NCBI GenBank assembly: GCA_018971305.1
Contig: JAGXBC010000002.1
Location: 144,046-208,045, forward strand
Length of the DNA stretch: 64,000 bases
From: Patescibacteria group bacterium
GTDB lineage: Bacteria > Patescibacteriota > Minisyncoccia > UBA6257 > 2-01-FULL-56-20
Reading direction: 5' to 3'
The translations under genes were made by a program, and so were the position numbers. Under the pieces are notes generated by a model that saw only the letters and a program-made list of their open reading frames with translations, was not told the origin of the DNA and did no database searches. Positions 11,922-60,860 of this stretch are shown here, piece after piece; the first letter of the stretch is position 1, and each line of letters opens with the position of its first letter.

Positions 11922-11961
11922 GAAGACATAGTGTTCATTCAGGATATATAATAATTTCAAC

Positions 11962-13269
11962 ATGCCCAAGCTTAAGAAAAATAAAAACAACGAACGCTTG
12001 ACCAAGTTCCGTTCGCCGCGGGGCATGTACGATATTTTGCCGATTGATCAGCAGTATTGGGACCGCATTGAAACGGCGGCTAAAAACCTCGCCCGTTCTT
12101 ATAATTTCCATCGTATTGAGCCGCCGATTCTGGAGGACGCGGATTTGTTCAGAAAGACCATTGGCGAAGAAAGCGATGTCGTGGAAAAAGAGATGTACAC
12201 ATTAAAAACCAAAGGGGGCGATGTTTTGGCTCTCCGTCCCGAGTATACGGCCTCCAATATGCGTGCTTATCTGCAGAATAGCTTGTCACGCATAGGTCAG
12301 CCGCAAAAGCTTTATAATTTCGGTCCCGTGTTTCGCCACGATAGACCACAGTTGGGGCGTCTTAGAGAGTTTTGGCAAATAGGATTTGAAATAATCGGAG
12401 GTACGAACGATCCCATCTTTGATGCTCAGATTATTTTGATCTTTAAGAGTTTGTTGGACGAACTGAAGATAAAAAACACTGTTTTGAAAATTAATTCCGT
12501 TGGTTGCCGGGTTTGCCGTCCGATATACAAGAAGCAGCTGCAGAACTTTTATAAGAACCACGAAAAAGAATTATGCGAGGATTGTCTGAGGCGGTTAAAA
12601 ACCAACCCGCTGCGTTTGCTGGACTGTAAGAACGAATCGTGCGTAAAACTTAAGGATAAGGCCCCGAATTTTTTGGATAAACTTTGCGTAACTTGCAGCG
12701 CTCATTTTAAAGAAGTTTTGGAATATTTGGATGAACTAAAAATATCTTATGTGCTTGATAACCAGCTCGTGCGCGGCTTGGATTATTATTCGAGAACTGT
12801 CTTTGAAATTTTTGCCGAAGGCAAAGAAAGTGAAATCGGGGCATTGCCGGGCGGAGGCCGCTATGATTATCTAATGGAATTTTTGGGCGGGCACACAACC
12901 CCTGCGGTTGGCGGCGCTTGCGGCGTGGAGAGGTTAATCGCCGTGATGAAGGCGAAAGAAATTATCCCAGCGATCAAGGCGCTAAAAAGAGTTTTTGTTG
13001 CGCACGCCGGAGAGATGGCTAAGAAAAAGGCATTCGTTTTAATGAAATCGCTGGAGACGGAGGGCATCGCGATTTCCGAAGCTTTATCCAAAGAATCTTT
13101 AAAGGCCCAGCTTAAAGCTGCCGACAAAGAAGGTGTCCCGCTGGCTCTGATCCTTGGCCAAAAAGAAATCTATGAATCTAGCGTTATTCTTCGCGACATG
13201 CGCACGGGCTTGCAAGAATCTATTTCTTTGGATAGAATTGTTGAGGAAGTTAAAAAAAGGTGGAAGTAG
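11962..13269 (+). CDS. hisS: Histidyl-tRNA synthetase (class II), with a Cys-rich insertion
   Basis: Class II motifs (..RYDYLMEFLGG.., GGACGVERL), anticodon-binding C-terminal domain; insertion carrying four Cys pairs (CRVC..CEDC..CKNESC..CVTC). Confidence 0.9.
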   Translation: MPKLKKNKNNERLTKFRSPRGMYDILPIDQQYWDRIETAAKNLARSYNFHRIEPPILEDADLFRKTIGEESDVVEKEMYTLKTKGGDVLALRPEYTASNMRAYLQNSLSRIGQPQKLYNFGPVFRHDRPQLGRLREFWQIGFEIIGGTNDPIFDAQIILIFKSLLDELKIKNTVLKINSVGCRVCRPIYKKQLQNFYKNHEKELCEDCLRRLKTNPLRLLDCKNESCVKLKDKAPNFLDKLCVTCSAHFKEVLEYLDELKISYVLDNQLVRGLDYYSRTVFEIFAEGKESEIGALPGGGRYDYLMEFLGGHTTPAVGGACGVERLIAVMKAKEIIPAIKALKRVFVAHAGEMAKKKAFVLMKSLETEGIAISEALSKESLKAQLKAADKEGVPLALILGQKEIYESSVILRDMRTGLQESISLDRIVEEVKKRWK

Positions 13270-13278
13270 TTCTTAGGC

Positions 13279-13695
13279 ATGGAAGATTGTCTATTCTGTA
13301 AGATAGCCGCAAAGCAGATACCGGCGGATGTTGTTTATGAGGATGAAAACACGCTGGCATTTCTTGATGTGAATCCCAGGGCTCCGGGGCATACTATTAT
13401 TATTCCAAAGAGCCACCGGGAGACGATTCTAGATTTACCGGAGAAGGAGACAAGCAGTTTGTTTTCAGCGGTTAAGATAGTGGCTGATGCGGTTTCCGGG
13501 GCTTTGCACGCTGATGGCTTGAATATCGGAATAAATCATAAGCCCGCCGGCGGACAGGTAGTCAATCATCTCCACGTCCATATTTTGCCAAGGTTTATAG
13601 GCGACGGGGGTACGTCGGTCCAGGGAATAGTAAATAATCCACCGAAGGATTCGTTAAAAGAAATCTGTAAAAAAATTAAGTCATTTAGAAATTAG
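13279..13695 (+). CDS. HIT-family (histidine triad) nucleotide hydrolase
   Basis: HIT motif NHLHVHILPR; 138 aa. Confidence 0.8.
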   Translation: MEDCLFCKIAAKQIPADVVYEDENTLAFLDVNPRAPGHTIIIPKSHRETILDLPEKETSSLFSAVKIVADAVSGALHADGLNIGINHKPAGGQVVNHLHVHILPRFIGDGGTSVQGIVNNPPKDSLKEICKKIKSFRN

Positions 13696-23333: not shown

Positions 23334-23694
23334 TCCGCGGTAGCTCAACGGTAGAGCGGCTCCCTGTCAACAAGCATTCGATAGGGCTCAGTATTGATAC
23401 TGAGCGATAGTCGAAGTATCAAAAGGCAGCCATGCGTAGTAATGCACATAGGAAAAATCGGGCTAATTCGGGGAACCCCTTTATGAAATTAAAGGGCAAT
23501 CCCGAGCTAAATTCCGAAACGAAGTTTAGGACTTGTCCTCGGCTTCGCTGAAGGATAAACGTGTAGAGACTATATACCCGAATCCCAAAACGCCTGCCTG
23601 CCGGCAGGCAGGGGATATGAGATAGTCCAGCCCTTTCGGTAACGGAAGGAAAACTGTAAGGAGAAGGTTCCTGGTTCGAATCCAGGCCGCGGAG
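23334..23694 (+). tRNA. tRNA-Asn(GUU) interrupted by a group I intron; exons 23334-23367 and 23657-23694
   Basis: 5' exon tccgcgg-ta-gctc..gagc-g-gctcc-ctgt; 3' exon taa-ggaga-aggtt-cctgg ttcgaat ccagg-ccgcgga-g; acceptor stem perfectly paired (U1-A72), discriminator G73; reconstituted anticodon loop cuGUUaa. Confidence 0.7.
23368..23656 (+). other. Group I self-splicing intron (289 nt) in the tRNA anticodon loop, inserted after U35
   Basis: Core elements in canonical order: P-like ctaattcggggaa, Q-like caatcccgagc, R-like gtagagactata, S-like gagatagtcc; 5' exon ends in U; intron ends in G (omega G, 23656). Confidence 0.65.
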
Positions 23695-23788
23695 CTTGGG
23701 TGTTTTTCTTAGATAAATCAAAGACAGATAATTCTTTGTTAGTCATGATCGGGTTGTAACCAGCATGGTAAGATGATGATATGATAAT

Positions 23789-56688: not shown

Positions 56689-59529
56689 ATGCCTAAATAT
56701 GATTCGCAGAAAGTCGAGAAGAAATGGCAAAAGAAGTGGCTGGAGGAGAAAGTTTACGAGCCGGACTTAAAGAACCCGAAGAAGCCGTTCTATAACCTGA
56801 TGATGTTCCCGTATCCGTCGGCAGAAGGTTTGCACGTCGGGAATATGTACGCTTTTACGGGAAGCGATATTTATGGCCGCTATCAGAGGATGCGCGGCAA
56901 TGATGTGTTTGAGCCGATAGGGCTTGATGGCTTCGGCATCCACTCGGAAAATTATGCCCTAAAAGTCGGTACGCATCCAATGGAGCAGGCCAAAGTTTCC
57001 GAAAAGCGTTTTTACGAGCAACTGCAGGCGATAGGCAATGGTTTCGCCTGGGACGAACATCTGGAGACCTATGACCCCGAGTATTATAAGTGGACGCAAT
57101 GGATTTTTACGCAGATGTGGAAGCGGGGATTAGCTTACAGAAAAAAACAAAGGGTTAATTGGTGCCCCAAAGACAAAACGGTTTTAGCGGACGAGCAGGT
57201 TGAGGGCGGCAAGTGCGAGCGCTGCGGCAGCGTTGTTGAAAAACGCGAACTGGAACAGTGGTTTTTCAGGATAACCGCTTATGCAGAAAAGCTTTTGCAG
57301 AATATCGAAAAATTAGATTGGTCCGAAAAAGTTAAAATCGCCCAAAGAAATTGGATAGGCCGTTCGGAAGGCGCGCTTTTGAAGTTCCCGGTTATGGGTT
57401 CAAAGTTATCAATAGAAGTTTTTACCACGCGGCCCGACACTTTGTTCGGTGCGACCTACATGGTTTTAGCGCCGGAACACGCGTTAGTTTTAGAATTGAA
57501 AGAAAAAATATCCAACTGGAAAGATGTTGAAAAATATATAGAGAGTTCCAAAAAGAAAACAGAGGATGAACGAATTGCCGAAGGCAAAGAAAAAACCGGT
57601 GTCGAATTGAAAGGCGTCAAAGCCATAAACCCGGCCAATAAAGAAGAAATTCCCATCTGGCTTGCCGACTACGTTCTTTCCGGCTACGGAACAGGAGCAA
57701 TAATGGCCGTGCCGGCGCAAGACGAGCGAGATTCTGAATTTGCCAAGAAATTTAAACTGCCCATAAGAACAGTCATTGAGCCGATAACCGGTGAACCAAG
57801 AACAGACGAAAGTGAAAGGGCGGGAATAGTGGCAATAGTAGAGGACCCTAAAACCGGTAAAATACTCTCGTTAGATTGGCGTGATGGCGGAGGTGTTCTT
57901 TTTGTCGGTGGAGGCATAGAAAGCGGAGAAGATCTGATACGGTGCGGGGTGCGAGAGATAATAGAAGAAACAGGATATAAAAACTTAAAATTTATTTCAT
58001 CCACAGAAACAATACACCACCATTTCCATGCATTTTCCAAGAACAAGAATAGATACATGCATGCGATCGGTTTATATTTTCAATTGGAAAATGAAGAAAG
58101 AGAAAAAGAACGCTTGGAGGATCATGAAAAAGATAAATTCATTGTTGGATGGATTACTAAGGACGAAGCCGAAAGCAAGGTTAAAGATGCAATGCATCAA
58201 TATATTTTTCAGAAACTAATCCGTGGGAAGTGTTATTCCGGTCCAGGGCTGCTGGCAAATTCTGGAAAATTCTCCGGTATGGATTCCGAAAAAGCCAAAT
58301 GGGAAATAACGAAATTCGTCGGCGGCGAAAAGAAAATCCAATATCGTTTGCGCGATTGGCTTATTTCGCGCCAGCGCTATTGGGGCCCGCCGATACCGAT
58401 GGTTTATTGTGAGGCGTGCGCCAAAGAGAATAAAGGGGAACAAAAGGAAATGCCCGGCTGGTTTGCGGTTCTGGAAAATGAACTGCCTGTTGAGCTCCCT
58501 AAGGTAAAGGATTTTAGGCCGCAGGGTAAGGGGGAGTCGCCGCTAGCATCCGTGAAAGATTTTTACGAAACAACATGCCCTGGTTGCGGCGGCAAGGCGC
58601 GCAGAGAAACAGATGTTTCCGACACGTTCCTGGATTCTGCCTGGTATTATCTCCGCTATCTGGACCCAAAAAATGAAAAAGAAGTTTTTGATAAAAAGAT
58701 AATCAAAAAATGGCTGCCGGCGGAAATGTATATCGGTGGTGCCGAGCACGCCGTATTACACCTTCTTTATGTTCGTTTTATCGCTATGGTTTTCCACGAC
58801 CTGGGTCTTGTTGAATTTGACGAGCCCTTCAAGCGTTTCCGGGCCCACGGGCTTCTGATAAAAGAGGGCGCCAAGATGTCCAAATCAAAAGGCAACGTTG
58901 TAAACCCCGATGAATATATAAAAAAATTCAGCGCCGATGTTCTGCGGATGTACCTTATGTTCCTCGCCCCTTTTGATCAGGGCGGTGATTTCCGCGACGC
59001 GGGGATTCTTGGCATTGAGCGATTCTTAAATAGGACATGGAAATTATATGAAAGCGAAGGCAAGAAAAATAAAACTTCACCGGCCTTTCATCGCGCCGTA
59101 AAAAAAGTTACGGAAGACATTGAGTCGCTTCATTACAACACGGCAATCAGCGCCCTCATGATACTTTTGAACGAATTTGAAAAAGAGGGAATTGCGCCGG
59201 AAGAAAAAGTCGGATTCGTAAAGCTTCTCGCTCCTTTTGCGCCGCACATGGCGGAGGAAATTTGGCGGGAAGTTCTCGGCCATAAAACGTCAATTCATAA
59301 AGAGATGTGGCCGGAATACGACGAGAAGCTGATAAAAGAAGAATCGTTCACGCTTGTTATCCAGATTAACGGCAAAGTGCGCGCAAGTGTTGAAGTTCCA
59401 ATCGATATAAGCGAGAATAGAGCTAAAGAGACCGCGCTGGGAAACGAACGAGTTTGTGCTCTTCTCGATGGCAAAGAGCTGAAAAAAGTAATCTATGTGC
59501 CGAAAAAATTAATTAACATCGTCGTTTAG
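56689..59529 (+). CDS. leuS: Leucyl-tRNA synthetase with a Nudix hydrolase domain inserted in the CP1 editing domain
   Basis: HIGH-type motif PYPSAEGLHVGN, editing motifs TTRPDT and VPAQDERD, KMSKSKGN, C-terminal tRNA-binding domain; about 150 extra residues between ..KFKLPIRTVI and GLLANSGKFSGMD.. containing the Nudix box GGGIESGEDLIRCGVREIIEETGY. Confidence 0.9.
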   Translation: MPKYDSQKVEKKWQKKWLEEKVYEPDLKNPKKPFYNLMMFPYPSAEGLHVGNMYAFTGSDIYGRYQRMRGNDVFEPIGLDGFGIHSENYALKVGTHPMEQAKVSEKRFYEQLQAIGNGFAWDEHLETYDPEYYKWTQWIFTQMWKRGLAYRKKQRVNWCPKDKTVLADEQVEGGKCERCGSVVEKRELEQWFFRITAYAEKLLQNIEKLDWSEKVKIAQRNWIGRSEGALLKFPVMGSKLSIEVFTTRPDTLFGATYMVLAPEHALVLELKEKISNWKDVEKYIESSKKKTEDERIAEGKEKTGVELKGVKAINPANKEEIPIWLADYVLSGYGTGAIMAVPAQDERDSEFAKKFKLPIRTVIEPITGEPRTDESERAGIVAIVEDPKTGKILSLDWRDGGGVLFVGGGIESGEDLIRCGVREIIEETGYKNLKFISSTETIHHHFHAFSKNKNRYMHAIGLYFQLENEEREKERLEDHEKDKFIVGWITKDEAESKVKDAMHQYIFQKLIRGKCYSGPGLLANSGKFSGMDSEKAKWEITKFVGGEKKIQYRLRDWLISRQRYWGPPIPMVYCEACAKENKGEQKEMPGWFAVLENELPVELPKVKDFRPQGKGESPLASVKDFYETTCPGCGGKARRETDVSDTFLDSAWYYLRYLDPKNEKEVFDKKIIKKWLPAEMYIGGAEHAVLHLLYVRFIAMVFHDLGLVEFDEPFKRFRAHGLLIKEGAKMSKSKGNVVNPDEYIKKFSADVLRMYLMFLAPFDQGGDFRDAGILGIERFLNRTWKLYESEGKKNKTSPAFHRAVKKVTEDIESLHYNTAISALMILLNEFEKEGIAPEEKVGFVKLLAPFAPHMAEEIWREVLGHKTSIHKEMWPEYDEKLIKEESFTLVIQINGKVRASVEVPIDISENRAKETALGNERVCALLDGKELKKVIYVPKKLINIVV

Positions 59530-60500: not shown

Positions 60501-60860
60501 ATGGAGCGCGGAATTCGTAATACAATAAGAGAAATAGTTTTGCGGTTCAGAGCCAAAGACATTGGTTTTAAGAGAATAAAATCAGGATTAAAAACCGTTG
60601 AAACTCGCGCGGCTACAAAAAAATACCGCGATTTTAAGGCGGGGGACAAGCTAATCTTTGTCTGCGGCAATGAACGGTTCGGTAGGAAGATAACCAAAGT
60701 CCAGCACTTCGGGGGGATCGCCGCTATGCTTAAAAAAGTTCCTTATAAAAAAATCAACCCACTTTTTATATCTCTCGCCGCCGCCAAAAAAATTTATTAT
60801 GGTTATCCCGGCTATAAAGAAAAAATCAAAAAATTCGGGATTATAGCTCTTTATATTTAA
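60501..60860 (+). CDS. ASCH (PUA-like) domain protein
   Basis: ..FKRIKSGLKTVETR.. hallmark of ASCH domains; 119 aa. Confidence 0.5.
   Translation: MERGIRNTIREIVLRFRAKDIGFKRIKSGLKTVETRAATKKYRDFKAGDKLIFVCGNERFGRKITKVQHFGGIAAMLKKVPYKKINPLFISLAAAKKIYYGYPGYKEKIKKFGIIALYI

Follow-up and report, generated by a model that had tools for sequence, protein, structure and literature searches.

A Nudix hydrolase domain embedded in the CP1 editing domain of leucyl-tRNA synthetase in Patescibacteria and gut Bacilli

What is a complete Nudix hydrolase domain doing inside the editing domain of a leucyl-tRNA synthetase (LeuRS)? The question is posed by the leuS gene of a Patescibacteria group bacterium, found in a 64-kb stretch of contig JAGXBC010000002.1 (positions 144,046 to 208,045; this whole stretch is referred to as the window, and all coordinates follow its numbering), where an uninterrupted open reading frame (ORF) of 946 amino acids (56689..59529, +) encodes a bacterial-type LeuRS that hosts the insert. 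The window holds a single LeuRS and a single Nudix domain, both of them those of leuS. A first-pass annotation made from the sequence had proposed that the Nudix domain is complete and lies within CP1, and profile searches bear this out, since Pfam NUDIX (PF00293) matches within the protein and the match to the LeuRS editing domain (PF13603) is interrupted at residue 377. An essential bacterial synthetase here houses a second, predicted catalytic domain within its editing domain, and this arrangement is conserved across numerous lineages of Patescibacteria as well as in one abundant lineage of gut Bacilli.

As judged from its sequence, the host is a normal, working leucyl-tRNA synthetase with predicted leucylation and editing activity. 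The leuS product belongs to the leuS_bact equivalog TIGR00396 (901 bits; cutoff 548.4) and is collinear over its full length with T. thermophilus LeuRS (1h3n, E 3.4e-227). It shares with other bacterial LeuRS (T. thermophilus 1H3N/2BYT; the E. coli 4AQ7 group) a CP1 that has a Thr-rich motif and catalytic Asp, a KMSKS loop and a C-terminal tRNA-binding domain, and differs from the T. thermophilus enzyme in having about 135 extra residues at position 375/376, in lacking the leucine-specific domain and in reading HVGN at the HIGH signature. The canonical blocks listed in the first-pass annotation stand for the CP1 Thr-rich editing motif TTRPDT (residues 246-251; 57424..57441, +), for the CP1 editing motif VPAQDERD with Asp345 and Asp348 (residues 341-348; 57709..57732, +) and for KMSKS (residues 729-733; 58873..58887, +), and need amending only at the HIGH position, which reads HVGN (residues 49-52; 56833..56844, +), with H49 and G51 invariant. 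When 50 Nudix-bearing LeuRS were aligned (alignment A3), T246, T247, R248, T251, D345 and D348 proved invariant, as did K729, K732 and S733, with M730 and S731 nearly so. The leucine-specific domain (T. thermophilus residues 579-632) is absent at the junction of residues 724 and 725 (58864-58872 region), so that KMSKS follows directly. Because HVGN is found in 106 of the 120 closest LeuRS, mostly from Patescibacteria, with or without a Nudix domain, it is a clade-wide feature unrelated to the insert; the gut Bacilli relatives carry the canonical HAGH.

The insert interrupts a CP1 loop, between the strand ...PIRTVIE and ...GLLANSG. PF13603 scores 206.9 bits; its profile is matched from position 1 to 154 (of 185), a match that runs as far as residue 377 and there breaks off, and CP1 resumes as GLLANSGKFSG (58246..58278, +), the equivalent of T. 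thermophilus GIMVNSGPFDG. Since residues 1-378 align with 1-376 of 1h3n, and residues 514-724 with 375-578, some 135 residues (about 379-513) have no counterpart in T. thermophilus. The first-pass annotation had counted about 150 extra residues; the in-frame segment of linker, Nudix domain and linker does span 151 amino acids (residues 365-515; 57781..58234, +), of which about 15 are native loop or linker and about 135 truly extra. The insert has a GC content of 0.40 and a GC content at third codon positions (GC3) of 0.34, against a GC3 of about 0.55 in the host parts of the gene, and among the long ORFs of the window just 2.1% of 151-codon windows have GC3 this low. Despite this, the insertion looks old. 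A check of the insert borders revealed no direct repeats and only weak inverted repeats, and there is thus no sign of recent mobile insertion.

The inserted segment matches PF00293 with 46.0 bits when searched alone (E 6.6e-12), and with 41.5 bits over residues 378-498 when the full protein is used (gathering cutoff 21.1 in both cases). Its Nudix box GX5EX7REUXEEXGU, GGIESGEDLIRCGVREIIEETGY (residues 408-430; 57910..57978, +), has every signature position in place, including E414, R422, E423, E426 and E427, and is as letter-perfect as first described, although the start given earlier (57907) included one extra Gly. Beyond the box lie the X-loop region HHHFHAFSKNKNR (residues 443-455; 58015..58053, +), with Phe446 at the position of a substrate marker discussed below, and, further on, E480 and W488 (58126..58152, +), which are conserved in 78% and 96% of the family, respectively. 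The window copy keeps the family-specific conserved residues R377, K451, R455, E480 and W488. Across 233 near-full-length family domains, with a median identity of 31%, the full box is retained in 181 (78%); a subtype in which E7 of the box has become Q and R15 another residue accounts for about a fifth of domains. The insert has the alpha/beta/alpha Nudix fold, and AlphaFold2 predicts it with a predicted local distance difference test score (pLDDT) of 95.3 when modelled alone; in the model of the full-length protein (mean pLDDT 86, pTM 0.71) the Nudix segment is likewise confidently folded (88-95), and disorder is confined to two stretches, the mobile KMSKS loop (722-737) and 762-766. The graft is a self-contained domain that folds independently. 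Given the retained box and the family-specific residues, the insert is most likely to catalyse Mg2+-dependent hydrolysis of pyrophosphate bonds, and we infer that it is a metal-dependent pyrophosphohydrolase. Screening against PADLOC models gave no defence-system assignment, only a 17-bit partial match to PDC-S07 over the Nudix box.

How widespread is this architecture? An identical protein is present on three contigs from separate sources (MBU6500732.1, MDE2015429.1 and MDE2226956.1), its only public name being 'class I tRNA ligase family protein [Patescibacteria group bacterium]', and at least one Nudix domain of the same family is found in 79 of the 120 best full-length homologues, so that other LeuRS of Patescibacteria (the candidate phyla radiation, CPR) do carry the insertion. 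The same insert recurs at the same site in dozens of homologues, which is far beyond chance. While a word-indexed search with the insert alone gave no match, an exhaustive search with HMMER, run against 1.84 billion representative proteins, recovered just 360 homologues of the insert at E<=1e-3. The best 150 of these 360 are mostly LeuRS or LeuRS fragments, the remainder being small free-standing or tandem Nudix proteins and one spurious match; within this set the subfamily was not seen in the structurally similar IleRS, ValRS and MetRS or in other large proteins. The Nudix subfamily is therefore near-exclusive to LeuRS. Candidate partner-domain ('Rosetta stone') fusions were examined and rejected, as the long non-LeuRS matches proved to be LeuRS fragments, tandem-Nudix proteins and a spurious Ig-repeat protein (P0233).

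Species-representative genomes gave at least 183 matches to a profile of one subtype (alignment A2). Among the matches listed, 77 of 80 loci have the domain within LeuRS and at one and the same site, with free-standing relatives at L059, L071 and L074; host titles include Paceibacteria/Parcubacteria, Saccharibacteria, Uhrbacteria, Berkelbacteria, Taylorbacteria and Buchananbacteria, and, unexpectedly, about 30 gut metagenome-assembled genomes (MAGs) bear the titles Bacilli, Erysipelotrichaceae, Tenericutes or Mycoplasmatota. We assigned the taxonomy of relatives from consistent record labels, GC content and neighbouring genes; the Bacilli-type gut loci have a GC content of 26-35%. The LeuRS-Nudix architecture is thus not confined to the window genome or to CPR bacteria. 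Several 'MAG TPA_asm' titles naming Gammaproteobacteria or Muribaculaceae (L001, L005, L007, L045, L021, L038 and L056) look unreliable, the LeuRS-Nudix there being typical of Patescibacteria or low-GC Bacilli.

The gut Bacilli provide the most informative comparison, because intact, decayed and insert-free forms of the gene coexist. Searching with the LeuRS backbone of one such locus (L027), from which the Nudix domain had been cut out, we found 90 insert-free proteins of 796-797 amino acids at 78-79% identity, one of them named 'leucine--tRNA ligase [Bacilli bacterium]', together with 21 Nudix-bearing proteins of 937-947 amino acids; a single 90%-identity cluster of the latter comprises 599 member sequences on 40 contigs. 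A further nine proteins of 892-895 amino acids (for example at L084, 5001-7682, and in P0272, P0273 and P0278) carry a remnant of about 95 amino acids at the site, from which the whole Nudix-box helix has been deleted. The remnant gene shares its surroundings with the intact one (in order, methyltransferase, pseudouridine synthase, SpoVS, LeuRS and PFOR), and this synteny establishes the two as orthologues, but the insert-free gene sits in another neighbourhood. The flanking genes are of Firmicutes type in both settings: SpoVS beside the Nudix-bearing and remnant genes, and Cse60, FemAB and VanY around the insert-free relative. The insert-free and remnant relatives show that the Nudix domain is dispensable for LeuRS. 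The remnant and intact backbones are about 93% identical, whereas the insert regions share just 23-42%; since the rest of the domain decays once the catalytic helix is lost, intact copies appear to be kept for catalysis, which is the strongest indirect evidence that we have for an active enzyme. Across phyla, identity to the window protein falls in the same range for the Nudix domain (31-50%) and for the backbone (37-70%), and the linkers are recognisably homologous (LEEVTGTKHDNEKK versus IEPITGEPRTDESE). Taken with a Bacilli backbone that is native to Bacilli, the homologous linkers suggest that the Nudix cassette, rather than the entire gene, crossed phyla. A mosaic test of the Bacilli gene showed a slight dip in identity beside the site (0.68-0.75 versus about 0.8-0.9). 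With backbones that are nearly identical, the intact, decayed and insert-free alleles found in nature are ready controls for biochemistry.

On which substrate might the domain act? Tests for family-level membership gave no assignment: the RppH, MutT, NudB, NudE and YtkD equivalogs all scored 15-24 bits against cutoffs of 98-169, with 21.2 bits versus 118 for RppH (PRK00714), 18.9 versus 97.9 for the MutT 8-oxo-dGTPase (TIGR00586) and 23.5 versus 103 for the NudB dihydroneopterin triphosphate diphosphatase (NF006961). Comparison of the profile with PDB entries gave generic matches at level scores, with 42 bits for the best, 2azw, 41 for an ADPRase, 39 for 1f3y and 37 for 3i7u. The first of these, an uncharacterised and free-standing MutT/nudix protein of Enterococcus faecalis (2AZW; 18-19% identity), has no known function and hence transfers no substrate. 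A clue comes from the X-loop, where a Tyr is found together with activity towards diadenosine polyphosphates (ApnA) in a review of the Nudix clan (PMC5389931). A Tyr lies 16-18 residues past the box in 228 of 285 family domains (80%), and in at least 90% of the members of the subtype closest to the window copy; the window copy itself lacks this marker, having Phe446 (+16) and His447 instead. After 2azw, the fold neighbours include many polyphosphate and cap hydrolases (T. thermophilus Ap6A hydrolase, DIPP/DDP1, Rv2985, RppH, Ap4A hydrolases and decapping effectors), with ADP-sugar hydrolases on the same plateau of fold scores. The family Tyr marker and the fold neighbours are two weak pointers to polyphosphate-linked dinucleotides, and clearance of Ap4A-type by-products by the insert is plausible. 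As the substrate class we tentatively name dinucleoside polyphosphates or similar nucleotides with a polyphosphate linkage (Ap3A-Ap6A, and possibly RNA ends with an Np(n)N cap), an assignment that we would sooner expect to be revised than upheld.

Two further observations weigh against this choice of substrate. In seven Saccharibacteria-titled loci (L008, L029, L039, L040, L052, L053 and L072), a gene for a free-standing ApnA hydrolase of NUDT2/Aquifex type (58.9 bits to 3i7u as a single sequence) lies 0.6-1.3 kb downstream of LeuRS-Nudix on the same strand. In addition, the Ham1 and HAD domains that are co-inserted in related synthetases fit general nucleotide house-cleaning.

Those co-inserted domains belong to a wider pattern, in which LeuRS alone gathers hydrolase domains. 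In relatives, Nudix domains are inserted at three sites, A (after residues ~208-241), B (after 364, the site used in the window) and C (~576-626), with one to three copies per LeuRS; copies at sites A and B share sequence clusters, implying that the domain has moved or been duplicated inside the gene. Relatives with other inserts (P0004, P0166, P0176, P0243, P0020 and P0217) carry Ham1/ITPase domains (at site A in P0004, and in the C-terminal half of P0166 with 201 bits), a HAD phosphatase (P0176, as well as L046), Ser_hydrolase/alpha-beta hydrolase domains at site A and in the C-terminal half, or a 'PGFWNEYVG' domain without a family match that occurs at two LeuRS sites. The largest hydrolase-decorated LeuRS among those examined, a 1,735-amino-acid frame in a Candidatus Taylorbacteria MAG (L046; PLXZ01000004.1, 3205-8409), combines three Nudix inserts with Ser_hydrolase-like and HAD-like ones. 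An ASCH-like domain is inserted within the LeuRS of other Patescibacteria (P0123 and P0166), and a free-standing homologue of it (BLASTP E 1e-7, 27% identity) is encoded in the window by an ORF 1 kb downstream of leuS (60501-60860, +), which scores 17.6 bits against the ASCH model, under the cutoff of 21.2.

The explanation that we favour, with a confidence that lies only a little above even, is that the insert is an autonomous, catalytically competent Nudix enzyme on a CP1 surface loop, accessory to an ordinary LeuRS, with dinucleoside polyphosphates or nucleotides akin to them as its most likely substrates. Its core, an active accessory domain, is well supported, with catalysis predicted from conservation. 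In such a scheme, a Nudix pyrophosphohydrolase spliced into a solvent-exposed loop of CP1 would remain tethered to LeuRS and would cleave, in an Mg2+-dependent reaction, the pyrophosphate linkage of some small nucleotide, possibly a by-product of synthetase chemistry (ApnA-type nucleotides or capped RNA ends); it would add no new step to leucine activation or editing. If the domain is coupled to synthetase chemistry in this way, it would offer minimal-genome cells a new way to police adenylated by-products. A bolder extension, which we regard as possible yet doubtful, is that LeuRS of reduced-genome bacteria serves as a platform tethering nucleotide clean-up enzymes (Nudix, ITPase, HAD, serine hydrolase and ASCH-like) to translation, with the Nudix domain functionally coupled to the synthetase, for example by breaking down ApnA or other adenylated by-products where they arise or by acting on the 5' ends of LeuRS-bound RNA, and with the cassette having spread between Patescibacteria and gut Bacilli at the same CP1 loop. 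Were this true, nucleotide quality control would have a new layer, modular in build and linked to a synthetase.

The alternative that survives best, although we think it rather unlikely, is that the insert is a passenger: a house-cleaning enzyme that sanitises or salvages non-canonical (d)NTPs or NDP-X compounds in the manner of MutT or ITPase and has no link to LeuRS chemistry, being housed where CP1 loops tolerate insertions and where an essential gene guarantees expression in a reduced genome. The Ham1/ITPase, HAD phosphatase and Ser_hydrolase domains hosted at several loops of the same LeuRS family are consistent with this, as are the free-standing relatives, the gain, loss or decay of the insert while LeuRS stays unchanged, and the fact that, by record title, every host belongs to a reduced-genome lineage. 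Against it stand the near-exclusive association of the subfamily with LeuRS, and not with IleRS, ValRS or MetRS among the best 150 homologues, the lack of specific similarity to MutT (18.9 bits versus 97.9) and the X-loop Tyr of the family, which points to ApnA-type substrates. Even a pure passenger would represent a striking case of accessory enzymes 'hitch-hiking' in an essential gene, together with cross-phylum spread of a domain cassette.

The first-pass annotation had also raised the idea of a proofreading activity, whereby the Nudix domain would hydrolyse mis-activated aminoacyl-adenylates or add an editing or clearance step alongside CP1. Its position within the editing domain and the near-exclusive link to LeuRS would suit such a role, which we nevertheless judge improbable: the editing-site residues are invariant, close Bacilli relatives manage without the insert or with a box-less remnant, and Nudix copies also occur at other loops, including the C-terminal half, and in tandem. 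Moreover, an aminoacyl-AMP is an acyl-phosphate and not a typical Nudix substrate, being handled by HIT/Hint enzymes, and a HIT gene abuts that for HisRS in the same window. Just as improbable is an RNA-directed function, in which the Nudix domain, lying near the tRNA acceptor end that CP1 binds, would remove 5' polyphosphates or caps from tRNA-Leu precursors or other RNAs in the manner of RppH or NudC; although its closest characterised folds include those of E. coli RppH and of Nudix effectors that remove caps, the RppH equivalog reaches only 21 bits against a cutoff of 118, an RNA-binding extension is not evident, and the variability of the insertion site (A, B or C) argues against a fixed geometry toward tRNA.

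Slightly more remote still is a non-catalytic module, either a ligand sensor or a structural or interaction lobe that regulates LeuRS. The subtype with altered E7 and R15 and the retention, rather than deletion, of the box-less remnant in some Bacilli could be read this way, but the window copy and 78% of the family retain every catalytic residue, which also makes the pure nucleotide sensor considered earlier less likely, and the fast decay of the remnant is what a loss of function would lead one to expect. An artefact of chimeric assembly, gene fusion or pseudogenisation has virtually no chance of being correct, given a continuous ORF, the identical protein on three contigs from separate sources, the same architecture in orthologues from dozens of independent assemblies (77 of the 80 species genomes among the matches listed), a confident full-length model and the lack of flanking repeats, all of which uphold the earlier view that this is a single polypeptide.

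How does this arrangement compare with known systems? HIT/Hint and NUDT2-type Ap4A hydrolases act on adenylated by-products of aminoacyl-tRNA synthetases as separate polypeptides, whereas the hydrolase of the window is inserted within the synthetase chain. Compared with RppH and the ApnA hydrolases of the Nudix clan (among them human NUDT2, Aquifex 3I7U, T. thermophilus Ndx1 1VC8, E. coli RppH, DIPP/DDP1 and Rv2985), the window domain shows only 13-23% identity; NUDT2/RppH-type hydrolases are free-standing, while this domain is embedded, has Phe at the marker position and falls outside the corresponding families by profile. An IleRS with an N-acetyltransferase domain (NCBIfam NF040702, by its family-table entry) likewise joins a class I synthetase to an extra enzyme domain, although both the synthetase and the type of domain differ. 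Few enzymes have been studied as much as the aminoacyl-tRNA synthetases, and new domains appended to them usually mark new biology, as do WHEP, GST and EMAPII in eukaryotes. We found no description of LeuRS-Nudix, or of any synthetase-embedded Nudix domain, but only incidental matches, in a full-text literature corpus that lacks most subscription journals, in agreement with the first-pass annotation, and the words 'tRNA' and 'synthetase' are both absent from a 2017 clan-wide Nudix survey (PMC5389931). The sequences and their Pfam matches are already public under generic names, the embedded Nudix domain explaining why NCBI names the protein 'class I tRNA ligase family protein' only; the architecture is undescribed but widespread.

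Elsewhere in the window, the HIT-family nucleotide hydrolase gene (13270-13695, +; 141 amino acids; PF01230, 98.6 bits) begins right after the stop codon of HisRS (11932-13269, +), so that this genome pairs a synthetase with a nucleotide hydrolase a second time, in this case through neighbouring genes. A group I intron (~23368-23656; Rfam RF00028, 68 bits versus 50) interrupts a tRNA gene (~23334-23720, +) that ARAGORN missed. With the splice placed to satisfy the rules for U(-1) and omega-G, the product is tRNA-Asn(GUU), and alternative junctions would give Thr or Asp; a link of the intron to tRNA-Leu was ruled out, as the interrupted tRNA is tRNA-Asn. Finally, one of the free-standing relatives of the insert, a protein of 173 amino acids, overlaps the 3' end of a gene with a peptidyl-tRNA hydrolase-like N-terminus (L071, 5346-6429), in a neighbourhood that looks, from N-terminal sequence only, to contain signal peptidase, HisRS, def and fmt, and that resembles the window's own order of pth, signal peptidase, HisRS and HIT.

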